64,000 nucleotides of DNA from Chloroflexota bacterium (GCA_037441345.1 JBBISJ010000006.1:3530-67529), one strand, 5' to 3'. Positions 5,117-42,836 are shown, counted from the stretch's first letter. Notes: generated by a model from the sequence alone, not told the origin. Numbers and translations: made by a program.

Positions 5117-6160
5117 CTAGCTCAGCCCCATCTCCTGCTTGACGCCGGCCACCGCCTCGACCATGACGCGGAGCTTGTCTTCGCTCTCCTCGACGGTCCG
5201 CGTCTTGAGGCCGCAGTCGGGCAGTACCCAGATCCGCTCGGGGGGCAGACGCTTCAGCGTCCGCCGCAGCCCATCTTTTACCTCGTCAACGGTCTCCGTG
5301 AACCGGGTGTGCACGTCGGTCACGCCCAGCCCCAGGTCCTTGGCGTCGTCATAGCCAAACTCGTCGATCAGGTCAAGGTAGGCGAAATCAGTGTTCTTGA
5401 ACGCCAGATGGATCTGCTTCACGGGCAGCCGCAGCATCGCCGGGTAGATCTTCTCGACTTCGCCGTAGCAGATGTGCGTGTGGAACTCCGCGTCGATGCC
5501 GTCCACCGTGACGTGCATCGCCTCGACGGCCATGTCGAAGTCGGTGTCCGGGCGCGTGTGGATCGCGGGCTCGTCGATCTGGATGTACTTCGCGCCGGCC
5601 TCGACCAGCGCCTCGACCTCACGCCGGATCACCTTCGCCATGTCGAGCACTGCGTCGCGGCGCGACGGGTAGTGCTCGTCGAACGACCACTCCACCATCG
5701 TGTAAGCGCCGGTGAGCATCCCCTTGACCGGTCGCTCCGTCAGGCCCTGCGCGAACTTCCACATGTCGACCGTCATCGGCCCCGGCCACTCGAGCCGGTC
5801 GAAGATGATCGGCTTGTGATAGTAGCGATTGCCATACGAGCGCACCAGTCCACCCAGCTTCATCCCCTTGATCGGCGTCCCGCCCGGCTCCCCCGAGAAG
5901 TAAGCGACCATGTCGCCGCGCTCCATCTCGCCGTGGACGAGGACATCCAGGCCCACCTTCTCCTGGACGCGGATCCAGTACTCGGTCGCCTGCTTCTCCA
6001 GCCTGTCCAGCTCCTCGCGGCCGATCTTGCCCTGGGAGAACTCCGTGCGTGCCTTTGCCAGGTAGTCTGGCTTGGCGTAGCTACCGACGGCCGTCGTAAC
6101 GAGCGTCGTGGGCACGCCGCTCCAGGTCGTTGTTCGCCCGCTTGTCTGCTGTGTAACCAT
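5117..6160 (-). CDS. metE: cobalamin-independent methionine synthase, catalytic (C-terminal-type) domain protein
   Basis: Zn-binding motifs HTHICYGE and LPDCGLKTRT, plus IQIDEPA; about 347 aa, a single-barrel MetE-like protein. Confidence 0.8.
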   Translation of the reverse strand: MVTQQTSGRTTTWSGVPTTLVTTAVGSYAKPDYLAKARTEFSQGKIGREELDRLEKQATEYWIRVQEKVGLDVLVHGEMERGDMVAYFSGEPGGTPIKGMKLGGLVRSYGNRYYHKPIIFDRLEWPGPMTVDMWKFAQGLTERPVKGMLTGAYTMVEWSFDEHYPSRRDAVLDMAKVIRREVEALVEAGAKYIQIDEPAIHTRPDTDFDMAVEAMHVTVDGIDAEFHTHICYGEVEKIYPAMLRLPVKQIHLAFKNTDFAYLDLIDEFGYDDAKDLGLGVTDVHTRFTETVDEVKDGLRRTLKRLPPERIWVLPDCGLKTRTVEESEDKLRVMVEAVAGVKQEMGLS

Positions 6161-7134
6161 TACGCCGGCACTCCTTCCGCTCGCTTCGCGCCTTCCACGA
6201 GCACTTTCAGCTTCTCGAACGCCGTCTCCCGCGGCAGGTACTCGACGCCGCAGGACGGGTTGAGGTAGAGCCCGTCCGCTGGCACCAGGGCAGTCACACG
6301 CTCCACGGCGGCGGCGATCTGATCCGGCGTCTCGATCCTGGTGTTGCGTCCGTTAATCGCTCCGAACCCGAGCTTCTTGCCGAAACTCACCTTCGCCAGC
6401 GCCTCCCAGTTGGCCGGGCCAGCAACGAAGTCGAGTCCGATCACATCCGCCGGCGTATCGAGAAGCGCATCAAGAATACCCCCGCAATCGCCGAACCAGG
6501 TGTAGATGCCGGTCTCAGCGTTGACGCCGTCAAGCATCCGCGTCAGCGCGGCCGTGAACGTCCCCACCTGGTCCTTGTTCTTCACGATCATCGGATCGTT
6601 CACCTGGATGTGCGCGCAACCGGCGTCCACGAGGGCATCGATCTCGCTCCGCAGCGCCTCGGCATACGCCAGTGCCAGGCGGTTCCTGTCGTTATAGTGC
6701 TTGTCCAGCGAGAGGACAGCCAGCGTGAACGGGCCCGGCAGGATAGCCTTCACCGGGCGGCTGCTGTTCTCCTGCGCGAACCGCCAGTCCGCGGCGAGCA
6801 CCGGCTTCTGCCAGCCGATCTCGCCGACTACCTCTGGCTCGCGGAAGTAGGTGTTCGTATCCATGTACCGCTGCAGGCCGCCGATCTCGACGCCTTTGAA
6901 GTTGCGCGCGACATAAGTCTGGTCGTCGTCCCAGCGCACCTGGCCGTCCGTGATCACGTCGATCCCGGCGTCGATCTGCTCCTGGATCACCTCGATCGTG
7001 ACCTCGTTCCGCACCTGCTCGAGTTCTTCGTTGGAGAGCTCCCCGCGGTCGCGCTTGTTGATCGCATTGCGCAGCCGCGCCGGCCGGGGACGGTTTGGAA
7101 TTTTGGGATAGTTGCCTACGACTGTTGTCTGCAT
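6160..7134 (-). CDS. MetE N-terminal-domain-like protein (non-catalytic UroD/MetE barrel); its stop overlaps the start of the downstream metE-like gene
   Basis: MQTTVVGNYPKIP start, preceded by an AAGGAG Shine-Dalgarno 6 nt upstream; MetE-fold similarity but it lacks the His-x-Cys zinc motif (YTWFGDCGG, NPSCGVEY); the ORF in the track is extended to 7185 without support. Confidence 0.7.
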   Translation of the reverse strand: MQTTVVGNYPKIPNRPRPARLRNAINKRDRGELSNEELEQVRNEVTIEVIQEQIDAGIDVITDGQVRWDDDQTYVARNFKGVEIGGLQRYMDTNTYFREPEVVGEIGWQKPVLAADWRFAQENSSRPVKAILPGPFTLAVLSLDKHYNDRNRLALAYAEALRSEIDALVDAGCAHIQVNDPMIVKNKDQVGTFTAALTRMLDGVNAETGIYTWFGDCGGILDALLDTPADVIGLDFVAGPANWEALAKVSFGKKLGFGAINGRNTRIETPDQIAAAVERVTALVPADGLYLNPSCGVEYLPRETAFEKLKVLVEGAKRAEGVPA

Positions 7135-7431
7135 ACAGCTCCTTGTGACTGGCGGGGCCGGGGGGGGCGGCCCGCATCTTGCCACTGTAGCTTATCGTGG
7201 CCGGAGCGCGGGGTCGAGTGCCCCAATGACACCTGGCTCTTGGAGATCCACAGCCATGCGCGGCATCATGTGCCGGACATGCTGTCGGGCAATACCCTAC
7301 CTGAGGACATGCCAAATTTCCTAACTGAAGTATTGCTTATTGTCATTGACACACCTACGATATTAGCAGAGGCTAATATGCATCCGATGGCTCCGACAGA
7401 TGCACCAGCCGCTAGGAAGCAGACTCTTTAA
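7135..7431 (-). promoter_or_regulatory. long 5' leader/promoter of the split metE operon; a GC-rich hairpin lies just before the SD; candidate riboswitch, class not assignable
   Basis: about 300 nt of non-coding sequence upstream of a methionine-synthase gene; GCGGGCCG-C7-GGCCCCGC hairpin adjacent to the AAGGAG SD. Confidence 0.3.
7360..7379. promoter_or_regulatory. AT-rich palindrome ATATTAGC-AGAG-GCTAATAT upstream of the FTR1 permease gene; candidate metalloregulator (DtxR/IdeR- or Fur-like) operator
   Basis: perfect 8-bp arms around a 4-bp spacer, about 55 nt upstream of the 7432 start, in a GC-rich genome; 12 of 18 positions match the IdeR box TTAGGTTAGGCTAACCTAA. Confidence 0.35.
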
Positions 7432-8295
7432 ATGACGTTCTCGTTCCTCGTAACCGCCAGGGAAGGGCTGGAGATGGCCCTCATCGTTACGATCTTGCTC
7501 GGCTATCTCCGGTCGGTGGACCAGAAGCAGCACTTCCGGGCTATCTGGGCCGGCGTCGCTGCGGCAGTGGCCATCTCGGTCGGCTTCGCCGCCGGCCTTG
7601 AGATCGCCTCCCGCGAACTCGACGGCCGCGTGCTGGAGGCGTTCGAGGGCTTTACGATGCTCTTTGCCGTTGGCGTCCTGACGTGGATGCTGTTCTGGAT
7701 GCGCAGCCAGTCCACCGGGATATCCAGGGACCTGCGGGCCAGGATGGACCTGGCCCTTTCGACCGGGTCCGTCACGGCCCTCGCCCTTCTCGCGTTCTCC
7801 TCGGTTGGGCGCGAGGGCATCGAAACTGCCCTGTTCCTCTTTGCCGGGTCGACCAACCAGGGATCGGACATGTCCTTCCTCGTGGGCGGCCTGCTTGGCT
7901 TCGGCGTGGCGGCCGCCGCCGGAGTCGTCATCTACTACGGCTTTGCCACACTCCCACTCAAACACTTCTTCAGCGTTTCTGCAGTCGTCCTCATGGTCCT
8001 CGCCGCAGGCCTTCTCACGAACGCTCTGACCGAACTGCACGAGGCCACGATCATCCCCGACCTCGGTGTGCGACCCTGGGACACCGAGGAGACGCTCCCC
8101 ATGACTTCCGACCTCGGCAAGTTCCTCCACACCGTCCTGGGATACGACTCCGCACCCGCGATCAGCCAGATCGCCCTCTACTGGTCATACATCTCGCTGG
8201 CCTTGGCCGCCTACTTCGCCTTACCCCTGGTCCTTCCGGCGCGGCCGCCCGCCCGGGCCATGACCCCTGAACCATCACAAGCAACGCCCCGATAA
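7432..8295 (+). CDS. FTR1/EfeU-family high-affinity iron permease
   Basis: two REGxE motifs (TAREGLEMALIV and GREGIETALFLFAG) in transmembrane segments; about 7 TM helices. Confidence 0.7.
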   Translation: MTFSFLVTAREGLEMALIVTILLGYLRSVDQKQHFRAIWAGVAAAVAISVGFAAGLEIASRELDGRVLEAFEGFTMLFAVGVLTWMLFWMRSQSTGISRDLRARMDLALSTGSVTALALLAFSSVGREGIETALFLFAGSTNQGSDMSFLVGGLLGFGVAAAAGVVIYYGFATLPLKHFFSVSAVVLMVLAAGLLTNALTELHEATIIPDLGVRPWDTEETLPMTSDLGKFLHTVLGYDSAPAISQIALYWSYISLALAAYFALPLVLPARPPARAMTPEPSQATPR

Positions 8296-8318
8296 CAGGC
8301 TAGAAGGGAAACTACAGG

Positions 8319-9083
8319 ATGTTTCGTACCGCAGTGACCGCTTGCCTCGCACTGCTCGCACTCGCCATCGCCGCCTGTTCCGCAAGTGGTGAAGGCGGCC
8401 GCGAAATCCTCATCACTCAGACGGACGACGGCTGCACGCCTGAGTCAGTGGTGGTGAAGACGGGCGAGAAACTGAAGCTTACAGGAAAGAACGAAAGCGG
8501 CCAGACCTACGAACTCGAAGGCACCAACGGGACCCGGCTCGAGGAGATTCTGATTCCGGAAGGCCGCAAGCGCTCCGTTGGCTACGCGGTGCCTGACGAA
8601 GAGGGTACTTACGACGTCAAGTGCTACCAGCCCGGCGGGAAGTCCACGATCATCAAGCTCGTCGCCACTGCGGCCGGCAAGGCCGGCTCTGACGGGTCCG
8701 CCGATCCGGCCGGCGAAAGCGCGAACGAGCCCGAGATCGTCGGGGGGAACGACGACCCTGCCGACGATACCGTAGCTGTCCAGTTGTCAGAGTACGAGGT
8801 GTCAGCGGACAAGCTGACGGTAAAGGCGGGCAACATTGAGTTTGCGGCTGTCAACACCTCAGCCCGTGAGGTCCACGAACTGGCCGTTCTGCAGGTCAAG
8901 GAGTCAGGCGGCTTCAACGTCATCGGCGAGATCGAGGATATGCCTCCAGGGACTGATGCGTCGGTCCGGCTGAAGCTGGAGCCCGGTTCCTATGAACTGG
9001 CGTGCCTGATCGTGCCCGGAGAAGAAGGCAGCACCGCCGACCACTACGCCGAAGGCATGCACACAGCCTTTACCGTCGAATAG
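8319..9083 (+). CDS. lipoprotein with two cupredoxin-like domains (FtrB/EfeO-N-like partner of the FTR1 permease)
   Basis: lipobox LAIAAC-SAS; C-terminal Cys...His...Met copper-site-like motif (ACLIV...HYAEGMHTAF); immediately downstream of the FTR1 gene. Confidence 0.55.
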   Translation: MFRTAVTACLALLALAIAACSASGEGGREILITQTDDGCTPESVVVKTGEKLKLTGKNESGQTYELEGTNGTRLEEILIPEGRKRSVGYAVPDEEGTYDVKCYQPGGKSTIIKLVATAAGKAGSDGSADPAGESANEPEIVGGNDDPADDTVAVQLSEYEVSADKLTVKAGNIEFAAVNTSAREVHELAVLQVKESGGFNVIGEIEDMPPGTDASVRLKLEPGSYELACLIVPGEEGSTADHYAEGMHTAFTVE

Positions 9084-15998: not shown

Positions 15999-17552
15999 GT
16001 GACGCTATTCAATAGCCCATGGTTCTCCATCGAACCTTATCCGGAGCTCTCGCTTCCCGACTTCCTCGCTCCCGCTGCCGATAGGTACGCCGAGAGAACC
16101 GCGTTGATCAGCTTCGATGGCCAGACCTACAGCTTCGCCCACACGTGGGAGTCCTGCCGGCGCCTCGGAAGGTTCCTTCAGGACGCCGGCATCAGCAAGG
16201 GTGACCGAGTGGCCATCTTCTCGGCGAACTCACCCGAGTACTTCGTCACCTTTTTCGGCATCCTCTGTGCCGGTGCCACGGTCACTACCCTCAACCCCCT
16301 TTACAAGGAACGCGAACTCCTCCACCAACTCGAGGACTGCAGCGCCACCGCGATCTTCGCCATGGGTGCCCTTTCCCCCATCGTCGAGAGCGTTCGTGCC
16401 CACCTCCCTTCTCTCAAGCACGCCTTCATCATCGAAGACGTCTGGAAGATCGCCGCGGACGCACCTCCGGACCTCGGCCCCGTCAGCATCAATGCCCGCG
16501 AGGACATCGCCGCCCTCCCCTACTCCTCGGGCACCACTGGTCTTCCCAAGGGCGTTATGTTAACTCACTACAACCTGGTGTCTAACGTTCGCCAGACACT
16601 CACAACCGGCATCAGTTCCGGCTACGGCACCTACCTCGACTTCCTGCCGTTCTTCCATATCTACGGCATGGTCGTGCTCATGGCCTGCGGTTTCGCCGCC
16701 GGCCTGCCCCAGGTCATCATGCCTCGGTTTGACCCCGCCCTCTGCCTCGACCTCATACAGAGGTACAAGGTCACCAACCTCTTCGCCGTTCCGCCCGCCC
16801 TGCTGGCGTTGTCCCACTTCCCTGACACCGCTAAGTACGACACCTCCAGCCTCTCCATGATCATGAGCGGCGCCGCTCCCCTTCCCGCGGAAGTCGCGCG
16901 CGCAGCAGCGAAGGCGCTCGACACCACCGTCCTCCAGGGCTACGGCATGACGGAGACCAGCCCTGTCACAAACGTCAACCCCGTTACCCGCATCAAGGAC
17001 TCCACTGTCGGCCCGCCCGTCGCCGACACGGTCCAGAAGGTCGTCTCGCTGGACGACGGCCGGGACCTGGGTGTTGGCGAAGTCGGTGAGCTCCTGACCT
17101 TTGGCCCGCAGGTTATGAAGGGATACTGGAACGCCCCGGAGGCGACCGCTGAAACACTCCCCGGCGGCGGCTGGATACGCACCGGTGACATCGTCTCGGT
17201 GGATCAGGAGGGTTATGTGACGATCCTCGACCGCAAGAAGGAGATGATCAAGTACAAGGGATACCAGATCGCGCCGGCCGAACTTGAAGCGCTTCTGCTC
17301 GAGCACCCGGCGGTGATGGATTCGGCAGTCATTCCGAAGCGTGACGATGAGTCGGGAGAGATCCCCAAGGCGTTCGTCCTGCTGAGGGAAGGCCACGAAA
17401 CGAGTGTCGAAGACCTCATGCGCTTCGTCGAACAGCGCGTTGCCCCCTACAAGAAAGTCCGCGAGATCGAATTCGTTGAAGCGATCCCGAAGACCGCGTC
17501 CGGCAAGATCCTGCGCCGGGAGCTTATCGAACAAGAGCGCGCAAAGGCGTAG
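15999..17552 (+). CDS. AMP-dependent synthetase/ligase (acyl-CoA synthetase, 4-coumarate-CoA-ligase-like)
   Basis: AMP-binding motif LPYSSGTTGLPKGVMLTH, plus YGMTETS, GWIRTGDI and KILRREL. Confidence 0.85.
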   Translation: MTLFNSPWFSIEPYPELSLPDFLAPAADRYAERTALISFDGQTYSFAHTWESCRRLGRFLQDAGISKGDRVAIFSANSPEYFVTFFGILCAGATVTTLNPLYKERELLHQLEDCSATAIFAMGALSPIVESVRAHLPSLKHAFIIEDVWKIAADAPPDLGPVSINAREDIAALPYSSGTTGLPKGVMLTHYNLVSNVRQTLTTGISSGYGTYLDFLPFFHIYGMVVLMACGFAAGLPQVIMPRFDPALCLDLIQRYKVTNLFAVPPALLALSHFPDTAKYDTSSLSMIMSGAAPLPAEVARAAAKALDTTVLQGYGMTETSPVTNVNPVTRIKDSTVGPPVADTVQKVVSLDDGRDLGVGEVGELLTFGPQVMKGYWNAPEATAETLPGGGWIRTGDIVSVDQEGYVTILDRKKEMIKYKGYQIAPAELEALLLEHPAVMDSAVIPKRDDESGEIPKAFVLLREGHETSVEDLMRFVEQRVAPYKKVREIEFVEAIPKTASGKILRRELIEQERAKA

Positions 17553-17567
17553 GATAGACCGGGACAG

Positions 17568-18200
17568 ATGAGAACACCCTTCTCTGGCTTCATCAGCCTG
17601 CTGATGACCATCGCGGCGATCTTCGTCGCAGTGATCGTGCTGTTCAGTTTGCTTACGAGCGGCGACCTCGGCCCGCAAGACGGATGCAAAGACGCTGACA
17701 CAGGGGATATCCGCAGTATCCCGCTAAGCGACGCTCTCGCCGGCGAGTTTGACCAGGCATGGGATGCGGCCAATGCGGCCGTCGACGGCGGACAGGCGGA
17801 GGCATCGTTCACGCTGACTGAGGCGCAGGTCTCGTCCCGTGCAAACAGCTTCCTGGAAGCCGGCGACGCACCGGTCACTGAGGTCACGGTCTGCTTCCAC
17901 GACGGCTCCGCGGAGGCGCGGGCGAAGGTGGAAGTGCCGACGCTGGCCACCCTCCCCCTGGTTGGGAGCGTCTTCGAGCCGGACGTCAAAGCCGCCGGCA
18001 ATGTGGACTTCCGGGGCGAGCGCCCCAGCCTCGATCTAACGGAGCTGGATGCCGGTGGGCTTCCCGGTTTCATCGAGGATGCGATCAAGGATCGCGCCGA
18101 GGACGAGGTCAACAAGCTCCTCGATGACCTCCAGCTGGACCATGCCTACTCACTCACCTTCACCGAGGGCCAGATCCAGGTAACAGTCCGGCCGAAGTAG
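17568..18200 (+). CDS. hypothetical membrane-anchored protein
   Basis: N-terminal TM segment (ISLLMTIAAIFVAVIVLFSLL); acidic extracytoplasmic domain; no known domain. Confidence 0.5.
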   Translation: MRTPFSGFISLLMTIAAIFVAVIVLFSLLTSGDLGPQDGCKDADTGDIRSIPLSDALAGEFDQAWDAANAAVDGGQAEASFTLTEAQVSSRANSFLEAGDAPVTEVTVCFHDGSAEARAKVEVPTLATLPLVGSVFEPDVKAAGNVDFRGERPSLDLTELDAGGLPGFIEDAIKDRAEDEVNKLLDDLQLDHAYSLTFTEGQIQVTVRPK

Positions 18201-18203
18201 CGC

Positions 18204-18410
18204 TTACCTTCCGGCCTTCAGGCGTTTCAGCAGCTCGCGTGAGGCATCGGCAATCTGCGCCACCGCTCCGTTGAACGCCTCCTCGTTGGCCCGCGACGGA
18301 GCCCGGTAGCCGCTGACCTTGCGCACGAACTGGAGCGCGGCCGCCCGGATCTCGTCGTCAGTTGCGGGCGACTCAGCGCGGCGTAGCTGCTTGATGCTCC
18401 GGCACATCAC
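18204..18410 (-). CDS. DUF2277-like small protein
   Basis: 68 aa; the PATDDEIRAAALQFVRKVSGYRAPSRANEEAF pattern matches the conserved actinobacterial DUF2277 family. Confidence 0.55.
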   Translation of the reverse strand: MMCRSIKQLRRAESPATDDEIRAAALQFVRKVSGYRAPSRANEEAFNGAVAQIADASRELLKRLKAGR

Positions 18411-18890
18411 TCACACCTCCCTGTCCGGCTGGCCGACGCCACCGGCAACTCCGGATTCGCGATGCATCATTACCTGGGTCGGGCTGGGGTGGAAATCGTT
18501 GCGCGCATAGAAGGCCACACGCTCCGGCTCGCAGAACAAGGAGATGACGTGCACCGGGCCGATCTCCTTGACGAGGCGTGCGACCAGTCGCTCACCTATC
18601 TGCCGGCCCCTGTAGTCCGGGTCGATCACCACATCCTCGACGTACGCACGGTGCACGCCGTCAGAGAGAGCCCTGGCGAAGCCGACCAGTCGGTCGCCGT
18701 CCCAGGCGCCGACGGATATCGATTGCGCAATGGCCCGCCGGATACCTTCCGCCTCCCACCCGGGCCACCAACCCGCCCCGTCATACAGGCGGCGTACATC
18801 GCCGGCGGGGATTGGACGCGCGCTGGCCCCGGCCAGTACGATCTCCCCGATCACGGCTTCCGCGCCCGCATGAAGGTCTCGCTCCGACAC
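18411..18890 (-). CDS. GNAT family N-acetyltransferase
   Basis: motif A region YVEDVVIDPDYRGRQIGERLVARLV; its stop abuts the DUF2277 start. Confidence 0.8.
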   Translation of the reverse strand: MSERDLHAGAEAVIGEIVLAGASARPIPAGDVRRLYDGAGWWPGWEAEGIRRAIAQSISVGAWDGDRLVGFARALSDGVHRAYVEDVVIDPDYRGRQIGERLVARLVKEIGPVHVISLFCEPERVAFYARNDFHPSPTQVMMHRESGVAGGVGQPDREV

Positions 18891-19013
18891 GTTTCCCTCC
18901 TCGTCGAAATGAGACGATTATACGACCGCAGCGCTCCCTCAAAGGTCTGAAGACCTGCAGCTACTTACCGCCCAAATCCGGGCCGGCCTGAAGGCGCGGC
19001 TGCGGTTCTCGCG

Positions 19014-21794
19014 TCAGGCCCTCGCTACGTCGACCGCTATTCCCCGGTCGATCGGAACCGGCTGAAGTTGCATCAGCCAGTAGCGCAGGTGGCCGTATCC
19101 GCCGGCCAGGTGGAGCCATTTGACCATGCCCGGTTCGCTGTTCGTCGGGTCGTCCCACTTCTCGAACTGGTAGGGCTCCCAGCCGTTGTACATGATGAGT
19201 TGGCCCGGCCGGACCGACGGCGAGATCTTGGCAGTGCAGATGTACGAAGACACGTCGTTGAACACGCGCACTTTGCCGCCGTTCTCGATACCGCGCACTT
19301 CCGCGTCCCGCGGGCTCAGCATGACCGACGGCTCTCCCCTGTGCGTCTGGAGCATCAGCGGGTTTACTGAGTTGGCCGAGTGAACGGTCCAGCGCGAATG
19401 CCCGCTCGTCATCGTTAGCGGGTGATCGCCCCCCTGCCTGGGATTCGGCTTGTGCACAGGCAACTGCTCGTTCGCTTCCAGGAACCAGTCGTGGTCGATG
19501 TAGAACTGCGCACGCCTGGTTAGCGTTGGGTACGGCATCTTCTTCTCTGTGTGCCAGCGGAAAGGGTTGTGCGTGCTGTCCGGCGCCAGGTCCGATGCCT
19601 GGGCGAGGGCGAAGGGCACGGCGCCCCAGTTCGTGAAGCGGACGATCCCCTTCTCCTTCATCTTCGCCAGGTCCGTATCGGCGGGGATGTTGCCGAATGC
19701 CGCCGTGTCCTTGATCCACTCGTCGGCCAGCTTCACCGGGGTATCGATCGCGCCTCCCTTGGTGAACTTCTCGACGAGCGCGTCCAGCCGGTGCACGCCG
19801 CCGCGCGCGTCCTTGCACTCGACGAAGTCTCGCGCCTTCGCCCGCTCCTCGATCTTCGCCGCAAGCAGCTTGAAGATCTCGAACTCGGGCTTCGCCTCGC
19901 CGGGCGGCGGCACCGCCTCGTCGGAGAACGTCAGGTTCATGATGTCCGGCGTCGGGATGTGGAACGTCAGCTTCTCGTAGCTCAGGGCCACCGGCAGGAC
20001 GAAGTCGGACCACATCGCCGTCGTCTGCATGCGCCAGTCCACGGTGACGATCATCTTGAGCTTCGGCCAGAGGTTCTCGATAGCCAGTTTCTGCCCGCCC
20101 CGGAGCCGCCGCAAGAAGTTGCCACCCACCTCGAACAGTACGCGCGGGGGATTGTCCGGACCCGGCCGGTCAAGGCCCATCCACCAGCCCTTGCCGAGCG
20201 CCTCCTTGAACCGTGAATCGAAGCCCTCGCCGATCGCAGGGTCGTTCCACGCCGCCTGGTTCCAGCGATCCCGTAAGCCGCAGTGGTAGTACCAGAGGAA
20301 CGCCGGCGGCACGGTGTTGCCAATTGGCGCCGCCATGCGCATCAGCTCGATCGAGGCCATCTCGTCAGTCATCTCGGGGTCCTGGGCCTTGATCGCGGTG
20401 GCCATCATGTTGCGCATCGTGAGGACGCGCGTCGCCTCCTCCGTGCCTGCCGTGTTCTTCATCGACGAAAGGTAAGCCCCGTCGAACATTCCCACCGACC
20501 AACTGCGTGTTCCTGTACCCTTCTTCCCCCAGTTGCCCGTCAGCCCCAACAGCAGGCACATCGAACGCTCGATCAGGTCGCCGTGGTAGTACTTGCCGGC
20601 GTTGAAGCCGAGGAGGATGTTGGTGCGCTTCGCCGCTACCTTGCGGGCCAGCGAGCGGATCATCGCGGCATCCGCGCCGCAGAGCGCCGCCGCCTTCTCC
20701 GGCGTGTACTCAGCTTCCAGCAGCTCCTTCAACAACGCGTACGCCGGCGCGACCTCCACGCTGCTCCCATCCGCCAGCGTCGCCTGGAACCGACCTTCAA
20801 GCGCAGGCTCAGCGCCACCCGTGTCCAGCGTCCCCCGCGGCGCGGGGACAACAGCGCCTGACTTCGCGTCGTACCAGTAGAACTGGTCGATCCGAGCGCC
20901 CTCGGCGACCTCCGGCCCGCGGAGAAAGCGCTTCGTGTCCGTGCGCACGAGCAGCGGCAGATCGGTCTGCTCGCACACGAACCGGCGGTCGATCAGCCCT
21001 TCCTCGGCGATCACCTGGCACATGCCGAGCGCCAGCGCCGCGTCGCTCCCCGGCTCGACCGTCAGATGGTAGTCGGCGTGGATCGCTGAGGGGCTGTAGT
21101 CCGGCGCAATCGTCACGACCTCGCCGCCGTTGTACCGCGACTCGAGCACGAAGTGGTACCAGGGAATCGACGTGTACGCCGGATTCCGGTGCCAGACCAG
21201 CGTCAGCTCCGCGTGGAACCAGTCGTCGACGCTGCTGGCCGAGTTCACCTTCCCGTACGTTATGTAGAGTCCCGGATTGAAGTCGTTGATGTCGGCGTTC
21301 ACGTCCGTGGTCGTCCCGCCCAGCCCCTCGATCAGAGGACCCATCAGCATCCCCGCCATCAGACCGCCCTCGTTCGGCGTCGCTACGTGCAGCACCGAGT
21401 CCGGGCCGTACTCCTGGATCGCGTCCAGCGTCGTGTCTGCGATCTCGGTCAGCGCCTGGTCCCAGGAGACTCGCTCCCAGCTGCCGCCGCCGCGCTCGCC
21501 CGCGCGCTTCATCGGGTACAGCACTCGCTCGGGGCTTTGGAGCATCCGGCTCCAGGCGCTCCCCTTCTGGCAGCCCATCGGATTCATGTCCGGTACGCCG
21601 TCCTCGATCACCGGGAAGACCCCTGCCGGCTCCTCGCCGACAACCTGGCCATCCTTCACAAAGACGCGGTACACGCAGTTGCCCGGGTAGCAGTTGATGC
21701 AGTGGCTGGCGAACGCGGTCTTCTCCCACGTCCACCGGGTGCCGTACCGCTCACCGGCCGGACGGCCCGTCGGCGCTTTCGATCCGTTGCCCAT
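19014..21794 (-). CDS. molybdopterin (bis-MGD) oxidoreductase catalytic subunit, NarG-like (type II DMSO-reductase family), cytoplasmic, function unknown
   Basis: FS0 motif HCINCYPGNC...NPMGCQKGSAWS (matches the NarG His-x3-Cys...GCxxGxSxSW pattern); 926 aa from the ATG with a GGAGGT SD; no twin-arginine signal. Confidence 0.7.
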   Translation of the reverse strand: MGNGSKAPTGRPAGERYGTRWTWEKTAFASHCINCYPGNCVYRVFVKDGQVVGEEPAGVFPVIEDGVPDMNPMGCQKGSAWSRMLQSPERVLYPMKRAGERGGGSWERVSWDQALTEIADTTLDAIQEYGPDSVLHVATPNEGGLMAGMLMGPLIEGLGGTTTDVNADINDFNPGLYITYGKVNSASSVDDWFHAELTLVWHRNPAYTSIPWYHFVLESRYNGGEVVTIAPDYSPSAIHADYHLTVEPGSDAALALGMCQVIAEEGLIDRRFVCEQTDLPLLVRTDTKRFLRGPEVAEGARIDQFYWYDAKSGAVVPAPRGTLDTGGAEPALEGRFQATLADGSSVEVAPAYALLKELLEAEYTPEKAAALCGADAAMIRSLARKVAAKRTNILLGFNAGKYYHGDLIERSMCLLLGLTGNWGKKGTGTRSWSVGMFDGAYLSSMKNTAGTEEATRVLTMRNMMATAIKAQDPEMTDEMASIELMRMAAPIGNTVPPAFLWYYHCGLRDRWNQAAWNDPAIGEGFDSRFKEALGKGWWMGLDRPGPDNPPRVLFEVGGNFLRRLRGGQKLAIENLWPKLKMIVTVDWRMQTTAMWSDFVLPVALSYEKLTFHIPTPDIMNLTFSDEAVPPPGEAKPEFEIFKLLAAKIEERAKARDFVECKDARGGVHRLDALVEKFTKGGAIDTPVKLADEWIKDTAAFGNIPADTDLAKMKEKGIVRFTNWGAVPFALAQASDLAPDSTHNPFRWHTEKKMPYPTLTRRAQFYIDHDWFLEANEQLPVHKPNPRQGGDHPLTMTSGHSRWTVHSANSVNPLMLQTHRGEPSVMLSPRDAEVRGIENGGKVRVFNDVSSYICTAKISPSVRPGQLIMYNGWEPYQFEKWDDPTNSEPGMVKWLHLAGGYGHLRYWLMQLQPVPIDRGIAVDVARA

Positions 21795-21986
21795 GGTTAC
21801 CTCCAGGGTTTTGTGTGCGGGTACCGCGCCCTGAAGGGCACGGCATAGCCGGGGCGCACAACGCGCCATCCTGCCCCGATTGTCCGCGACTCCAGCGGCA
21901 ACGTAAGTCAGGCGGCATCCCCGGATTCCTGTCAGGTTCTCGCCCACGGGCGCAGGGTGATCACCATCAGTTGCAGGCACAAATGA

Positions 21987-22016
21987 CGTAGGGGCGCGTC
22001 ATGATGCGCCCCTACG
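21987..22016. repeat. REP-like 30-nt palindrome, copy 1 (CGTAGGGGCGCGTCATGATGCGCCCCTACG)
   Basis: identical 30-mer also at 28657..28686; near-perfect inverted repeat. Confidence 0.8.
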
Positions 22017-22038
22017 GTGCGTGGTACGTTCGTTGCGT

Positions 22039-22905
22039 TTAGCAGCAGGTGCCCGGCTCGCAGGCGTTGGCCGCGACCACCGGGATCATGTCCGCGGTCG
22101 CCGCAGGCTTGCGGGCCCGGACGACGCCGCTGAAGATGCCGAGGTTGTCCGCGCCGGCCAGGCCAAACTCCCGCAGCTTGTCGCCGAGGCCGCTCCTCTC
22201 GGCGTCGGCGCCCGTGTACTCGCGGAAGGACTCGATTTCGGCGGCTTCGAAGCCGGCGGAGGAGAGCTTGTCGATGTACTCGCTCTCGGAGAGCGCGCCG
22301 GCGATGCAGCCGGTCCAGAGCGGCATGCTCTGCTTGACGGCGGCCGGGATATCCTGTCGCGTGACGATGTCCGAGATCGCGATGCGACCGCCGGGCTTGA
22401 GCACGCGGTAGGCCTCCCGCAGGACGGCGTCCTTGTCCGGCGAGAGGTTGACAACGCAGTTGCTGATGACTACGTCCACGGTGTTGGACGGCAGCGGGAT
22501 GTTCTCCATCTCACCGCGGAGGAACTCGACGTTCTTGACGCCAGCCCTGGCGGCGTTCTGGCGGGCCAGGTCGAGCATCTCGTCCGTCATGTCCAGGCCG
22601 TAGGCCTTGCCCTCCGGGCCCACGCGACGGGCCGAGAGAAGGACGTCGATACCGCCGCCGGAGCCGAGGTCGAGAACGACCTCGCCCTCATTGAGTGCGG
22701 CGACGGCGACGGGGTTGCCGCAGCCCAGCGAGGCGGCGACGGCCTCCTGCGGCAGATGCTGCAGTTCGTCGGTGGCGTAGAGCCGCGAGGTTACGGGGTT
22801 CTCCGGCACGGCGGTGCTGCCGCAACAGCGGCTCTCCTGCGCGGCCTTCGCGGCCGCGCCGTAGCGCCTGCGGACCTCTGTCTTGATCTCCTGTCCGGTT
22901 GTCAT
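22039..22905 (-). CDS. arsM: arsenite S-adenosylmethionine methyltransferase ArsM
   Basis: Cys pair CCGS, SAM motif VLDLGSGGGIDV, ISNCVVNLSPDK and WTGCIAGAL. Confidence 0.85.
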   Translation of the reverse strand: MTTGQEIKTEVRRRYGAAAKAAQESRCCGSTAVPENPVTSRLYATDELQHLPQEAVAASLGCGNPVAVAALNEGEVVLDLGSGGGIDVLLSARRVGPEGKAYGLDMTDEMLDLARQNAARAGVKNVEFLRGEMENIPLPSNTVDVVISNCVVNLSPDKDAVLREAYRVLKPGGRIAISDIVTRQDIPAAVKQSMPLWTGCIAGALSESEYIDKLSSAGFEAAEIESFREYTGADAERSGLGDKLREFGLAGADNLGIFSGVVRARKPAATADMIPVVAANACEPGTCC

Positions 22906-22931
22906 GTCATCGACCTCCTATCGATGCATTT

Positions 22932-23279
22932 CTATACAGCGAATTCGCTAAGCTGGCGGATTGCACCCATGAGGGCGCGCTGATTGACGCGGTGCCAGAC
23001 CCACTGGCCGCGCCGCTGCGACGTGATCAGGCCGGCCTCGCGCAGCACCTTCAGGTGGTATGAGATGGTGGGCTGGGAGAGGCCGAACTCGGGGACGATA
23101 TTGCACTCGCACGTCTCCTGGACATGGGAGATCGCCGTGAGGATACGGAGCCGCGTCTCGTCGGAGAGAGCACGGAACACGGCGGCCGCGGTGCGAACAT
23201 CGCCGTCCGCCGGAGCGATCTCCGTGACCGGGCAGCAGAGAGCTGCCGGGGTGTGGGCGGTGCTGGTCTGCCTAGTCAC
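22932..23279 (-). CDS. arsR: ArsR/SmtB family transcriptional regulator
   Basis: LSDETRLRILTAISHVQETCECNIVPEFGLSQPTISYHLKVL (HTH with a metal-binding CxC). Confidence 0.85.
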   Translation of the reverse strand: MTRQTSTAHTPAALCCPVTEIAPADGDVRTAAAVFRALSDETRLRILTAISHVQETCECNIVPEFGLSQPTISYHLKVLREAGLITSQRRGQWVWHRVNQRALMGAIRQLSEFAV

Positions 23280-23310
23280 TGCAGGAGTATCTTAAGGATT
23301 ATATAGATGC

Positions 23311-23358
23311 TTGTCAATATCCCTTGAAGCAATTGAACAAAAGAACAATCGAACAAGC
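23311..23358. repeat. GAACAA 8-bp-periodic array, locus A (TTGAACAA AAGAACAA TCGAACAA), in the arsR/decarboxylase divergent promoter region
   Basis: three tandem xxGAACAA octamers; AT-rich relative to the genome; similar arrays at 47419, 49735 and 50284. Confidence 0.6.
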
Positions 23359-23418
23359 GGAGCGATGGGCCCCTTTCATTACTCACCACCCCCCTCCGTG
23401 GTATCGTTTCGTGCTGGT

Positions 23419-24849
23419 ATGAACGGCCGACCGGCAGAGATGACTCCAGACGAGTTCCGGCGCTATGGCCACGAGCTGATCGACTGGATCGCCGAGTACC
23501 TGGAGAACGCCGAGCGCTACCCTGTCCTCTCGCCGGTGAAGCCCGGCGAGGTTCGCTCCCGGCTGGCCGCTTCGCCACCCCAAAACGGGGAGCCGTTCGG
23601 GGCGCTCCTGCGCGACGTGAACGAGGTGATCTTGCCGGGCATCACGCACTGGCAGTCGCCGAACTTCTTCGCCTTCTTTCCGTCGAACAACTCCTACCCC
23701 GCCATCCTCGGCGACCTGCTGTCGTCCGGCCTCGGCGTTCAGGGCATGCTCTGGTCGACGAGTCCGGCGTGCACCGAGGTGGAGACGCTGGTGATGGACT
23801 GGCTGGTGGAGATGCTCGGCCTCCCGGAGCGATTCCGCTCGTCCTCGCCCGGAGGCGGCGTCATCCAGGACAGCGCGTCGACCGCAACGCTCGTGGCCCT
23901 GATCGCCGCGCGGGAGCGGGCGACGCGCGGCCGCAGTAGCCGGGCGGGGGCTAGCGGCGAGCGGCTGGCGGTGTACACGTCGTCGCAGGCGCACTCGTCT
24001 GTCGAAAAGGGCGTCCGGATAGCGGGGATCGGCAGCGACAACCTGCGTTTGGTGGACGTGGACGAGTCGTTCGCAATGCGGCCGGAGGAGCTGGCGCGCC
24101 TGATCCGGGCCGACCGGGAGGCCGGCATCAGCCCGGCGATGGTCTGCGCCACGGTGGGGACCACGTCGTCCGGCGCCATCGATCCGCTGGGAGCGACCGG
24201 GGCGATCTGCCGCGAAGAGGGCATCTGGCTTCACGTCGACGCCGCGATGGCCGGCACGGCGGCCGTGTGCCCCGAGTTCCGCTGGATCCAGGACGGCCTC
24301 GAATACGCAGACAGCTACGTCTTCAACCCGCACAAGTGGATGGGCGTCCAGTTCGACTGCAGCGCCTTCTTCGTCGCCGACCGGTCGGCGCTCACCTCCG
24401 CCCTGAGTATCGTCCCCGAGTACCTGCGTAACGCCGCGAGCGAGTCCGGTGAGGTGATCGACTACCGGGACTGGCAGCTTCAGCTGGGACGTCGCTTCCG
24501 GGCGCTCAAGCTCTGGTCTCTGATCAGATCAGAGGGGGTCTCGGGGCTACAGGAGATGGTGCGCCGTCATGTTGCGCTTGCCCGGGAGTTCGCATCGTGG
24601 GTCGAGGCGGACCCGGAGTTCGAGATCGCCGCGCCGCACCCGCTGAGCCTGGTCTGCTTCCGCCACAAGGGAGGCGATGACGTAAATCGCGCCATCATGG
24701 ACCGCGTCAATGTCGGCGGCAAAGCATACTTCACCCACACGGTGCTGGACGACAGAGTCACCTTGCGCATGTCCATAGGTCAGCGCCGGACTGAACTCTC
24801 TCACGTACGGGCGGCGTGGGAGGCCATCCGCACGGCCGCGATGGGCTAA
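23419..24849 (+). CDS. pyridoxal-dependent (group II) amino-acid decarboxylase, aromatic-L-amino-acid/glutamate decarboxylase-like
   Basis: FFAFFPSNNSYPAILGDLLSSGLG and the PLP-lysine region NPHKWMGVQFDCSAFFV. Confidence 0.8.
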   Translation: MNGRPAEMTPDEFRRYGHELIDWIAEYLENAERYPVLSPVKPGEVRSRLAASPPQNGEPFGALLRDVNEVILPGITHWQSPNFFAFFPSNNSYPAILGDLLSSGLGVQGMLWSTSPACTEVETLVMDWLVEMLGLPERFRSSSPGGGVIQDSASTATLVALIAARERATRGRSSRAGASGERLAVYTSSQAHSSVEKGVRIAGIGSDNLRLVDVDESFAMRPEELARLIRADREAGISPAMVCATVGTTSSGAIDPLGATGAICREEGIWLHVDAAMAGTAAVCPEFRWIQDGLEYADSYVFNPHKWMGVQFDCSAFFVADRSALTSALSIVPEYLRNAASESGEVIDYRDWQLQLGRRFRALKLWSLIRSEGVSGLQEMVRRHVALAREFASWVEADPEFEIAAPHPLSLVCFRHKGGDDVNRAIMDRVNVGGKAYFTHTVLDDRVTLRMSIGQRRTELSHVRAAWEAIRTAAMG

Positions 24850-24869
24850 TTCCACTCTCCACTCTCCAC

Positions 24870-25835
24870 TCACGGCACCATCACGACCCGCCCGAACGCC
24901 TGCCGGCTCTCGATGTACCGGTGCGCCTCAGCGGCCTCGGACAGCGGATATGTCCGGTCGATCACGACACGCAGCTTCCCATCGGCCACGTCGCGGATCA
25001 GGCCCTCGACCAGCGGCCGCCCGCGCATCGGCTCGAACATGAGAGAGCCGCCGAAGAACACGCCGGTCAGGGAGCGGTTCATCTCGCTCAGCTTGCCCAC
25101 GTCGAGAGCACGCGACTCCGAACGGCCGGCGTTACCCACGCTCACGATCCGCCCGTGGTAGGCCGTCGCGTCGATGCTCCCAAGCAGCGTCGTCCCCACC
25201 GAGTCTACGACGAGGTTGACGCCCCCGCCCGACGCCGCCTTCACCTTCGCCACCCAGTCGCCCTCGCGGTAGTTGATGCCGTGGTCCAGGCCGAAGTCCT
25301 TTAGCCGATCCAGCCTCTCGTCGCTCGACGCGGTCGCCAGCACCGTCGCACCGGCCTGCTTCGCCAGCTGGATCGCCGCCAGCCCAACGCCCCCCGCGCC
25401 GGCCTGGATCAGCACCTTCTCGCCCGCCTGCAACTTCCCGAACTCGAACAGGCAGTCGTGCGCAGTGCCGTACGCTATCGGCACGCAGGCCGCCTGCGCC
25501 GGATCCATGCCGTCGGGTACCGGAAACGTCTGCATTGCCGCCACGGCAACCCGCTCGGCGTGCGACCCAAACGGCATCACTGCCACGACCATCTGCCCCA
25601 CCTGCCGGTCGGTCACTGCCGAGCCGACCTCTCGAACGATGCCCGCACACTGGTAGCCGACGATGTGCGGCCTGGACGCCATCTCGCCACCCGCCCGATT
25701 CAGCACGTCGCCGCCCTCGATCGAGATCGCCTTCACGTCAAGGGCCACAGCCCCCGGCGCGCATTCCGGATCGGGCCTGTCCTCGTAGCGGAACACGTCG
25801 GGCGATCCGGTCTCATAGTAAACAGCGGCTTTCAT
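24870..25835 (-). CDS. zinc-type alcohol dehydrogenase / NADPH:quinone oxidoreductase (MDR family)
   Basis: MKAAVYYETGSPDVFRYEDRPDP N-terminus and a Rossmann GAGGVGLAAIQLAK. Confidence 0.8.
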   Translation of the reverse strand: MKAAVYYETGSPDVFRYEDRPDPECAPGAVALDVKAISIEGGDVLNRAGGEMASRPHIVGYQCAGIVREVGSAVTDRQVGQMVVAVMPFGSHAERVAVAAMQTFPVPDGMDPAQAACVPIAYGTAHDCLFEFGKLQAGEKVLIQAGAGGVGLAAIQLAKQAGATVLATASSDERLDRLKDFGLDHGINYREGDWVAKVKAASGGGVNLVVDSVGTTLLGSIDATAYHGRIVSVGNAGRSESRALDVGKLSEMNRSLTGVFFGGSLMFEPMRGRPLVEGLIRDVADGKLRVVIDRTYPLSEAAEAHRYIESRQAFGRVVMVP

Positions 25836-36711: not shown

Positions 36712-38016
36712 CTAGAACTCCGCCCCCTCATCCGACAGGAATGACCCGAAATCCTCGCCGCGGCTCCAGTCCAGCATCATCACCCGGACCTGGTCGCCGG
36801 CTTCTACGACATCAACGTCCGGCGGGATCAGTGTCAGACCGTTCGCCCGCATCATGGACGTCAGGATGCCGGAACTCTGGCTGCCGGTGAGCCTCGCGTA
36901 GTAGCGGCCCTCACGCTCGGTCACAATGCAGCGCGCCAGGAAGACCCGCGGGTCGTTCCTTTTAGTTATCGCATCCTCCGCCGTCGCCGTGACAATCGGC
37001 CGGCGGAAGTCGGTCTTCCCCATCATCTTGAGCATTGCCGGCCGCCCGAACAGCTCGAACGCCACCATTGAGCTAACCGGGTTGCCCGGCAGTCCGATAT
37101 GGGGGATGCGACGCCCACCCGACTGGAAGGCGCCAAACGCCAGCGGCTTGCCCGGCTTCATCGCCACCGTCCAGAAGGCGACCTCGCCCTCCCGGGCCAG
37201 AACATCCTTCACCACATCGTAGTCGCCGCGCGATACACCCGCGGAGGTGATGACCATATCGGCAACGAGCGCCTCGTGGATCTTCGCAGTCAGCGCCTCC
37301 ACGGTGTCCTTCGCAATCCCCAGCAACAGCGGCTCCCCGCCGCAGCGCTTCACGAGGCCACCCACGCTGTAGGCGTTGGCGTCGTAGATGCGCGCGCCCG
37401 ACCGCGGCTGTCCAGGCTCGATCAACTCGTCGCCCGTTGACAGCACCGCCACCACCGGCCTCCGGATCACACGCACCCGGTCGCGCCCGACGGAAGCGAT
37501 AACGCCGATCTCCTGAGGGCGCAGAACTGTACCCTTCCGCACGACAACCTCGCCCGCATGTACATCCTCACCGGCACGCCGGATGTTCGCCCCTTCTCGA
37601 GCCTCCTTACGAACGCGGACGGTCGCCCGGACCCGGCCCGTCTTCTCGGGCGCCCTATCGAATGGCTCGTCGGTTTCTTCGAAGGGGACGATGGCATCCG
37701 CGCCGGCGGGCACCGGTGCGCCGGTCATGATCCGCACGGCGGTGCCGGTCCGAACGGCGCCATCGTAGATATACCCGGCCGCCACCTCTCCGACCACTTC
37801 GAGCTCCCGAGGCGATGTCTCGGTCGCGTCCCGGGTATCCGCCGCGATCACCGCGTAGCCGTCCATTGCCGTGTTGTCCAGCGGCGGGATATCGAAGTCT
37901 GCCGTCACATCCTCGTCCAGCACCTGGCCGAGCGCCTCCATGGGGTGCTTTCCCTCGGAGGGAAGCACGCTCACATACGCCAGGATTCTCTCCAGCGCCT
38001 CTTCAATGCCGATCAC
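36712..38016 (-). CDS. moeA: molybdopterin molybdotransferase MoeA
   Basis: PPLDNTAMDGYAV and GLPGNPVSSMVAFELF (MoeA N- and C-terminal signatures). Confidence 0.85.
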   Translation of the reverse strand: MIGIEEALERILAYVSVLPSEGKHPMEALGQVLDEDVTADFDIPPLDNTAMDGYAVIAADTRDATETSPRELEVVGEVAAGYIYDGAVRTGTAVRIMTGAPVPAGADAIVPFEETDEPFDRAPEKTGRVRATVRVRKEAREGANIRRAGEDVHAGEVVVRKGTVLRPQEIGVIASVGRDRVRVIRRPVVAVLSTGDELIEPGQPRSGARIYDANAYSVGGLVKRCGGEPLLLGIAKDTVEALTAKIHEALVADMVITSAGVSRGDYDVVKDVLAREGEVAFWTVAMKPGKPLAFGAFQSGGRRIPHIGLPGNPVSSMVAFELFGRPAMLKMMGKTDFRRPIVTATAEDAITKRNDPRVFLARCIVTEREGRYYARLTGSQSSGILTSMMRANGLTLIPPDVDVVEAGDQVRVMMLDWSRGEDFGSFLSDEGAEF

Positions 38017-38086
38017 ACAGGTCCCCCGTCCAACAAGAAATGGTGGCGGTCTCCCGCCACCATTCTAGCCGCGCTGAAGATACCGT

Positions 38087-38423: not shown

Positions 38424-39164
38424 TCAATACGGGATCACGTAGCGGGCGAACGGCAGTTCCGAGTCGACCTCGCACAATACAGCGGATACCACGTTCCGGC
38501 AGGGCATCGTGGTCCACGTATTCCCGCCCGGCCGGTCGCCGTATGTCACCGTTCCCTTGCCGCGCGCTGCCTTGCGGATTTCGGTTTCCGGATCGATCTG
38601 CGCCAGTTGCACCAGGTCGTGCCGGACATCGCCCCGCAACGACGGCGACAGCCTCAGCGTCAGCAACGGGTCGAAGCGGACCAGGTCGGGCTCAATCGCT
38701 TCCAGCCCGGTGACCGAAACCTCGCACACACCGGATCCCGCAGCGCCGGCGGTCGCAGTCGCGCGTCCGCGGCCACGGCGCAGGCTGACCGTGCCGGCAA
38801 CGCAGGGGAACCCCCACCCTTCCCGGAGCGCGACCAGGGCGCGGGGGTTATCCACCACTGACTGCAGCGCAAAGACGCGGACGAAGTGGCCAGCCCGGCA
38901 GCCGATGAACTGATGGGCGACGCTGAACGGCCCAACGGGGGACCGTGGATACTGCTCAAAGGTGATCACTGCGTACGGCGGCGAGGACCGCGTCAGCTTC
39001 GGCGGCAGCCAGTCCAGCACCGGATCGCTATCGGTCTCGAAGATCACCTTGAGAATCCGGGCGCCCGGCAGCTTCCAGGGCGGCGGTGGATAGAGCGGAG
39101 CGATGGCGGGAACGGCGTGCGCCAACAGGTCCTCGGTGAGCCTGCCCTGGTCCGGCATCAGGGC
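38424..39164 (-). CDS. acetoacetate decarboxylase (ADC)-family protein
   Basis: PLYPPPPWKL motif typical of the ADC superfamily; about 247 aa from the internal start MPDQGRL. Confidence 0.65.
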   Translation of the reverse strand, partial: ALMPDQGRLTEDLLAHAVPAIAPLYPPPPWKLPGARILKVIFETDSDPVLDWLPPKLTRSSPPYAVITFEQYPRSPVGPFSVAHQFIGCRAGHFVRVFALQSVVDNPRALVALREGWGFPCVAGTVSLRRGRGRATATAGAAGSGVCEVSVTGLEAIEPDLVRFDPLLTLRLSPSLRGDVRHDLVQLAQIDPETEIRKAARGKGTVTYGDRPGGNTWTTMPCRNVVSAVLCEVDSELPFARYVIPY

Positions 39165-40297: not shown

Positions 40298-40336
40298 CGC
40301 CGGGCTATCGTAACACCGATCTGCCCGGGCCGGACG

Positions 40337-42753: not shown

Positions 42754-42836
42754 GATTGGCGCTTATCATAGGGAACGGCCCGAAGGCTGGCAACGGCGTG
42801 TCCAGCGCTGCAACGGACTCTATACTGGGCCGCGGT

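Follow-up and report, generated by a model that had tools for sequence, protein, structure and literature searches.

The known way to hydroxylate hydrocarbons and sterol side chains independently of oxygen is through molybdenum enzymes of the ethylbenzene dehydrogenase (EBDH) and steroid C25 dehydrogenase (S25DH) type. This type is a heterotrimer with a haem b gamma subunit (EB_dh) and has a NarJ-like chaperone; its characterised members are proposed or shown to be periplasmic, with electrons passing to cytochrome c. An Asp-Lys pair is described as functionally and mechanistically important in EBDH and S25DH, and S25DH does without the active-site His of EBDH (PMC6153880). Sterolibacterium denitrificans possesses eight alpha (catalytic subunit) genes and fewer beta-gamma genes; S25DH1 is an alpha1-beta3-gamma3 complex, and alpha2 and alpha3 are active with beta3-gamma3 and the SdhD chaperone (PMC6016249). 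Here, we describe an alpha gene of this type in a 64,000-nucleotide stretch of DNA from a Chloroflexota bacterium (GCA_037441345.1, JBBISJ010000006.1:3530-67529; hereafter the window), where it lies beside arsR and arsM (Table 1). An earlier note on the window had described its product as an orphan, cytoplasmic, NarG-like molybdoenzyme of an atypical, stand-alone kind. The reading that we favour is that alpha is probably a cytoplasmic molybdenum (Mo)/FS0 catalytic subunit of the EBDH/S25DH branch which uses beta, gamma and chaperone subunits encoded elsewhere in the genome.

The open reading frame (ORF) at 19014-21980 (-) is uninterrupted for 988 codons and encodes 926 aa from the ATG at 21794. 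Two Pfam domains exceed their cut-offs, Molybdopterin (PF00384, 115.9 bits) and Molydop_binding (PF01568, 57 bits). The FS0 motif reads SHCINCYPGNC...NPMGCQKGSAWS, and alignment to the EbdA site shows that it is better taken as the ligand set His31-x3-Cys35-x4-Cys40...Cys75. These four residues are invariant across 30 homologues, as are Asp171 and Lys401, which correspond, by alignment only, to the EbdA Mo ligand D223 and to EbdA K450; Asp171 is thus a predicted Mo ligand and Lys401 its predicted partner. The 926-aa protein, the FS0 motif and the molybdopterin domains of the earlier note are all borne out.

We assign alpha to the EBDH/S25DH branch because profile scores, structure-database matches, sequence collinearity and model superposition favour EbdA. 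A Protein Data Bank (PDB) sequence search returned EbdA of Aromatoleum aromaticum (2ivf_A) at 756 bits over the full length, PcrA at 454 and NarG at 183 bits. BLASTP against mature EbdA gave 41% identity over 928 columns with 13 gaps, the two proteins being collinear. The AlphaFold2 (AF2) model of alpha (pLDDT 74.7, pTM 0.79) superposed on 2ivf_A with TM scores of 0.89/0.90, on PcrA with 0.82, and on NarG with 0.74/0.56 (0.56 normalised on NarG) at 19% identity. The EbdA model NF042978 scored 802 bits, its alignment beginning at profile position 55, directly past the Tat (twin-arginine translocation) leader; the equivalog cut-off is 2000 bits, and a score of 802 against it indicates that alpha is not ethylbenzene dehydrogenase proper. 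The NarG model TIGR01580 gave 214 bits in four fragments (cut-off 1084), and the assimilatory models fell further short, with 65 bits for NasC (cut-off 1100) and 49 bits for NasA (cut-off 1000). Judged by these scores, alpha is neither specifically NarG-like nor an assimilatory nitrate reductase. Of the NarG-like description, what holds is the assignment to the catalytic subunits of the type II (Nar-clade) enzymes; its closest relative is EbdA rather than NarG, and the suggestion of an assimilatory NasA/NarB-type enzyme falls away.

Comparison with the described enzymes places these scores in context. EbdA and alpha share the His/Cys3 FS0 ligands, the Asp Mo ligand and its Lys partner, and relatives of the window alpha adjoin EbdB-, EbdC- and EbdD-like genes; unlike EbdA, the window alpha has no Tat leader and no adjacent partners, and the operon order among its relatives is gamma-beta-delta-alpha or alpha-gamma-beta-delta. 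The S25DH system (S25DH1-4, alpha1-8) resembles the present case in its described organisation: many alphas with few beta-gamma modules, and orphan alphas served by partners encoded elsewhere. It differs in that S25DH alphas bear Tat leaders, the enzyme is proposed to be periplasmic and the host is proteobacterial. Escherichia coli NarG (NarGHI) shares with alpha the type II clade, a cytoplasm-facing position without export, a His-type FS0 and an Asp Mo ligand, but it has 1,240 aa against 926 and is always encoded with NarH, NarJ and NarI, and the gamma of its system is a membrane dihaem protein rather than a soluble haem protein of the EB_dh type. PcrA (4ydd/5ch7) is likewise a type II alpha, with 30% identity, but it is a periplasmic, Tat-exported oxyanion reductase and is clearly further from the window alpha than EbdA.

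The Tat leader and periplasmic location that accompany EBDH and S25DH are both missing here, the latter by prediction. A Shine-Dalgarno sequence precedes ATG 21794, the best 120 homologues all begin at the matching position, and an independent gene call on the near-identical contig L160 (GCA_034434195.1, DAOTZW010000101.1; located via an ArsM sequence look-up) also gives 926 aa, so that ATG 21794 is the true start of alpha; an exact-sequence look-up of the alpha protein found no match. Because the GGAGG fixes the start codon, there is no leader. The N-terminus coincides with that of mature EbdA (EbdA residue 55), and an RRxFL twin-arginine motif was absent from the protein, from the in-frame extension and from every frame of the 245 nt upstream, and a leader concealed further upstream or out of frame was rejected. 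The earlier note is therefore corroborated in its claim that a leader is lacking, and with no export signal alpha is predicted to reside in the cytoplasm. An Rfam search across 17000-25000 returned no match at E <= 1, and the idea of an RNA element in the arsM-alpha gap, such as a molybdenum-cofactor riboswitch, was rejected.

The orphan status of the gene and its housekeeping surroundings would also fit a decaying remnant, that is, a non-functional alpha paralogue left behind by operon loss. This we regard as a negligible prospect, given that all 926 codons are intact behind a strong ribosome-binding site and that the cofactor ligands are all invariant. Third-position GC is 0.87, similar to that of the adjacent genes in a window of ~65% GC. 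Against five orthologues with 72-87% identity, dN/dS is 0.12-0.24; alpha is under purifying selection.

No partner subunit accompanies alpha. Across six frames of the 64 kb, the CxxCxxCxxxC motif did not occur in any real ORF, and tblastn of the beta, gamma and delta subunits from one related locus found no match in the window. Fer4_11, EB_dh and Nitrate_red_del were absent among its ~45 Pfam-annotated genes, narH, narJ and narI were likewise not found in the window, and no four-cluster beta of the TIGR03478 type stands alongside alpha within the 64 kb. Three small proteins, namely a 203-aa Cys-rich, a 210-aa membrane-anchored and a 68-aa DUF2277 protein, were considered as misread partners and rejected for want of similarity to beta, gamma or delta. 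The claim that no NarH-like FeS subunit, chaperone or membrane anchor is encoded nearby accordingly stands, also when the unannotated small ORFs near alpha are taken into account, since none resembles a partner subunit.

Searching more widely, we found that the window alpha belongs to a large Tat-less radiation. In the protein database, clusters at 56-89% identity to alpha number more than 100, nearly all from metagenome-assembled genomes (MAGs) of Dehalococcoidia/Chloroflexota and consisting of leaderless proteins of 920-955 aa; at least 576 relatives occur in species-representative genomes and at least 569 in metagenomes, and among the matches listed some come from Binatia, delta-proteobacterial, Myxococcales and Solirubrobacterales MAGs. 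We assembled 157 related loci (denoted by L numbers), which contain 249 alpha ORFs but fewer partner ORFs: 92 beta, 63 gamma and 45 delta. No partner was present anywhere in the locus for 22 of the 56 central alphas (those with at least 5 kb on both sides), and 74 of 133 Tat-less alphas were unlinked, with no same-strand partner within 1.6 kb; about 40-55% of Tat-less alphas are orphans. Others sit in gamma-beta-delta-alpha or alpha-gamma-beta-delta operons (L010, L011, L018, L094, L095, L144, L146 and L152), with the order alpha-alpha-gamma-beta-delta-alpha-alpha in L010 and two successive gamma-beta-delta-alpha sets in L018. The partner genes are recognisable by profile: the L010 beta scored 499 bits on TIGR03478 (cut-off 480.7), the L018 delta chaperone 177 bits on TIGR03482 (cut-off 152.3) and the L018 gamma 169.4 bits on TIGR03477, marginally below the cut-off of 169.85. 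None of the 33 EB_dh-type gamma ORFs in L002-L079 has a signal peptide, each beginning at the mature domain (M[LK]AKKV..LLDP..W), and the complexes to which the Tat-less alphas belong are for this reason predicted to be cytoplasmic. In a neighbour-joining tree with EbdA as sole outgroup and no support values, the paralogues that bear a Tat motif (SRRTFLKG) group apart as the sister clade of the Tat-less radiation.

Several side observations concern these loci. Dense arrays of EBDH-like alphas occur at L018 7371-18200 and L010 25-12424 and in L037, L038, L043, L103 and L116; in them Tat-less and Tat-bearing (SRRTFLKG) paralogues adjoin one another and share or alternate gamma-beta-delta sets. 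Leaderless gammas also adjoin Tat-bearing alphas; this implies that they are exported by hitch-hiking or have a dual localisation. The beta gene of OY969584, a 2.66-Mb MAG chromosome (L002 1204-2124 (-) / L009 1156-2223 (-)), reads as frameshifted, with the middle of the protein garbled relative to the L010 beta, as an assembly error or a pseudogene would produce. An N-terminal MF(G/T)ASL..L.L tail, carried by many Tat-less alphas, was considered as a chaperone-binding remnant lost by orphans and was discarded; no such correlation exists, and the tail is mostly found on unlinked alphas.

The orthologue clade of the window alpha comprises 19 loci (L003-L009 and L080-L091) at 72-87% identity, and none has an adjacent partner gene. 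Partner sets are nevertheless present in MAGs that carry orthologues: H68_705 has its orthologue in L006 and two gamma-beta-delta sets in L039, C20_metabat.bin.54 has its orthologue in L007 and a partner set in L010, and in MFD01299 the partner set lies 7 kb from the orthologue (L009), beside another alpha. In the neighbour-joining tree, the clade is nested among clades with members that are operon-linked to gamma, beta and delta. Partner use in trans is favoured because alphas outnumber partners, because the MAGs with orthologues hold partner sets elsewhere and because S25DH provides a precedent. The isolation of the gene beside arsM thus looks largely explained by a family-level pattern rather than by a new stand-alone enzyme. 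The earlier description of a stand-alone subunit as atypical does not survive this comparison: Tat-less paralogues run to hundreds, about half of which are orphans, and close relatives of the gene lie in gamma-beta-delta-alpha operons.

An enzyme that does stand alone, as a monomeric alpha exchanging electrons via FS0 directly with ferredoxin, flavodoxin or another soluble carrier, was weighed against partner use in trans. Monomeric FS0-containing members of the DMSO reductase family, among them assimilatory nitrate reductase and formate dehydrogenase H, operate in this manner. The consistently partner-free orthologue clade, maintained under purifying selection, agrees with such an enzyme, as do the location of alpha in a housekeeping region rather than a catabolic island and the lack of any partner in the flanking 19 kb and 42 kb. 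We nonetheless consider it unlikely. To our knowledge, no monomeric type II (Nar-clade) enzyme exists; alpha is collinear with EbdA, with no domain gained or lost; the clade is nested among operon-linked clades; and genomes with the orthologue carry partner sets. Orphan alphas with partners in trans are, moreover, a documented arrangement (PMC6016249).

Under partner use in trans, alpha would carry a molybdenum-bis-pyranopterin and a [4Fe-4S] FS0 cluster, with a NarJ-type chaperone (delta) assisting cofactor insertion. It would then dock on a four-cluster iron-sulfur beta, and probably also on a haem b gamma, both encoded elsewhere; by analogy to the S25DH isoenzymes of Sterolibacterium denitrificans, the beta-gamma modules may be common to several alpha paralogues. 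The reaction might be a water-dependent C-H hydroxylation, or an oxygen-atom transfer to or from an intracellular substrate; following the described enzymes, a two-electron oxidation of the substrate at Mo(VI)=O would draw its oxygen from water, and electrons would pass from FS0 to the beta clusters, then to haem b and on to a cytoplasmic acceptor. The organism makes the molybdenum cofactor, as indicated by the MoeA gene in the window.

Several points weigh against this reading. The position of EbdA His192 is occupied, in the alignment, by Pro140, and the chemistry need not be EBDH-like; the loss of this His does not exclude the wider EBDH/S25DH branch because S25DH likewise lacks it. The type II alpha model TIGR03479 matches from profile position 48 and scores 858.4 bits, below its cut-off of 984.75, a shortfall for which the missing 47-position leader accounts in part (a Tat-bearing L018 paralogue scores 1007 bits). 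The presence of beta, gamma and delta in the window's own genome is extrapolated from relatives. A clade that is always orphan, at all 19 loci, could equally mean partner independence. Finally, the neighbour-joining tree has a single outgroup and lacks support values.

There is precedent both for this kind of enzyme and for orphan alphas. The leaderless cytoplasmic version, with leaderless gammas and a massive paralogue expansion in Dehalococcoidia, was not found in the open-access literature searched, which yielded nothing relevant on cytoplasmic EBDH-like enzymes in Chloroflexota. The size of this radiation suggests that EBDH/S25DH-type chemistry also takes place inside the cytoplasm in Dehalococcoidia, a group abundant in sediments and aquifers. 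In annotation, orphan alphas in these genomes should not be labelled stand-alone or assimilatory enzymes; for the window gene, an apparent oddity becomes a family-level pattern.

Given the proximity of arsM, a metalloid-related function had been raised in the earlier note, and we asked what ties alpha to its neighbours. The neighbours themselves are as stated there: Pfam and NCBIfam scores confirm GNAT, arsM and arsR. In ArsM, CC27-28, C62, C150 and C200 are invariant in four orthologues, and ArsR carries a C-x-C motif (ETCECN) in its DNA-binding region. A sigma-70-like promoter match precedes arsR (one such consensus found against 0.5 expected), and the terminator-like hairpin past arsM folds at -29.2 kcal/mol (z = -3.86), with none of 200 shuffles equally stable. 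By these features arsR-arsM is predicted to be a promoter-to-hairpin unit of its own, separate from alpha and the molybdoenzyme function; between arsM and the alpha start lie the hairpin and about 190 nt.

An arsenic-linked enzyme would have alpha act with ArsM on methylated arsenicals, oxidising trivalent forms with water under anoxia or reducing pentavalent intermediates, in parallel to type II heteroatom oxygen-transfer enzymes such as dimethylsulfide dehydrogenase and selenate reductase. In keeping with it, arsM in the window immediately precedes alpha, both genes being on one strand, and L160, L006, L008, L162/L163 and L164 repeat the order arsR-arsM-alpha. The sister clade L047/L118 (57% alpha identity) has an arsM orthologue only 10 nt upstream of alpha, with a PadR-type regulator in place of ArsR and a quinone-oxidoreductase-like gene downstream of alpha, and all these methyltransferases keep the conserved cysteines of the family. 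The adjacency is embedded in a long conserved backbone, ADHzn-arsR-arsM-alpha-...-AMP-ligase-hypothetical-PTPS-S41 protease-SmpB, which includes ThrRS and IF3, and is therefore attributed to inherited chromosomal synteny. Moreover, ~11 of 18 orthologue loci have no arsM and show a luciferase-like oxidoreductase, an alpha/beta hydrolase or an aldehyde:ferredoxin oxidoreductase (AFOR) instead, and in an 87%-identical relative arsR-arsM lies 5 kb away on the other strand while alpha still adjoins the quinone-oxidoreductase-like gene. Further ars genes were absent among the Pfam-annotated genes of the window, and no paper tying arsM to a molybdopterin oxidoreductase was found in the open-access literature searched. 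With its own promoter-like site and hairpin, the syntenic setting and roughly two thirds of orthologue loci lacking arsM, the case for a metalloid-related function is weak; an arsenic-linked enzyme is a long shot, and a functional arsenic link for alpha of any sort is very doubtful. More specifically, an organoarsenical oxidoreductase of the arsM-adjacent lineage, oxidising toxic trivalent methylarsenicals or reducing pentavalent methylation intermediates, strikes us as highly improbable; if true, the arsenic methylation pathway would gain a molybdenum enzyme. Likelier than this organoarsenical proposal is that Dehalococcoidia run a cytoplasmic, haem b-containing system of the EBDH type, in which a large pool of interchangeable alphas would operate on a few beta-gamma modules.

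Table 1. Features of the window around and beyond the alpha gene
Feature	Coordinates	Strand	Remarks
Cys-rich protein, 203 aa	15303-15914	+	CxxC pairs CPRC, CEGC, CEDC
DUF2277 protein, 68 aa	18204..18410	-	contiguous with the end of the GNAT ORF
GNAT acetyltransferase	18411..18890	-	downstream of alpha
alpha gene	19014..21794	-	926-aa catalytic subunit, predicted Tat-less EBDH/S25DH-like, type II DMSO-reductase family
Shine-Dalgarno GGAGG	21800..21804	-	5 nt 5' of ATG 21794
terminator-like hairpin	21987..22016	-	directly past the arsM stop; 11-bp stem (9 G-C), then TCATTTGTG
arsM (arsenite S-adenosylmethionine methyltransferase, 288 aa)	22039..22905	-	NF008823 334.6 bits against cut-off 263
arsR (ArsR/SmtB metalloregulator, 115 aa)	22932..23279	-	NF033788 89.7 bits against cut-off 55
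sigma-70-like promoter match TTGACA-17-TAAGAT	23289..23317	-	immediately upstream of arsR; consensus match only
MoeA (molybdenum insertion into molybdopterin)	36712..38064	-	15 kb from alpha

The two enzyme names in the backbone are to be read loosely. The 'ADH' is a PIG3-type quinone-oxidoreductase-like protein and the ligase a generic long-chain acyl-CoA synthetase-like protein, neither of which reaches its model cut-off; a pathway drawn from these neighbours (alcohol dehydrogenase, CoA ligase) was tried and set aside as suggestive at most. In L164, an IS1595-family transposase (6598-7524 (-)) lies between the quinone-oxidoreductase-like gene and arsR. The GNAT gene occupies the position downstream of alpha in the window and in L160 and not in the other related loci; its identification as an ArsN-type arsinothricin acetyltransferase was rejected, there being no match to an ArsN model and no wider conservation of the position. 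In L160, L162 and L164, which form the syntenic lineage, the DUF2277 protein is again encoded downstream of alpha, and a redox-cofactor motif was not found in its 68 aa. The Cys-rich protein, which has no Pfam or NCBIfam match, is kept at the same syntenic position in L006, L008 and L160.

Around alpha orthologues in other genomes, a luciferase-like oxidoreductase is the commonest neighbour (cluster c1, 8 loci). Three loci have an AFOR gene (AFOR_N/AFOR_C) next to the orthologue: in L082 (1185-2918 (+)) and L081 (3-830 (+)) it immediately precedes the orthologue and shares its strand, and in L004 (4410-6143 (-)) it lies downstream on the opposite strand. A divergent EB_dh domain (PF09459, 56.6 bits) occurs in 350-aa proteins, secreted or anchored, near orthologues at L005 15127-17316 (-), L081 4965-6008 (-) and L082 6318-8096 (-), accompanied at L081/L082 by an HmuY-like protein; a Tat-signal 4Fe-4S protein follows further downstream at L005 19421-20335 and also in L082 and L087. 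We considered the divergent EB_dh proteins as the missing gammas and dismissed them, as they have signal or anchor sequences and none occurs in the window; the group looks like a separate extracytoplasmic system.

The remainder of the window is a housekeeping region with MutS/MutL, MetE-like genes, SmpB, ThrRS, IF3, L20, PheST and purine biosynthesis genes in addition to MoeA. A luciferase-like oxidoreductase is followed by two family III CoA-transferases (39158-42762 (-)), and two adjoining, partly overlapping ORFs (5117-6352 (-) and 6160-7191 (-)) both match Meth_synt_2, the catalytic domain of cobalamin-independent methionine synthase. In the sister-clade locus L047, a 718-aa fusion (6395-8551 (+)) joins a class I cysteinyl-tRNA synthetase catalytic domain to a family 2 glycosyltransferase domain.

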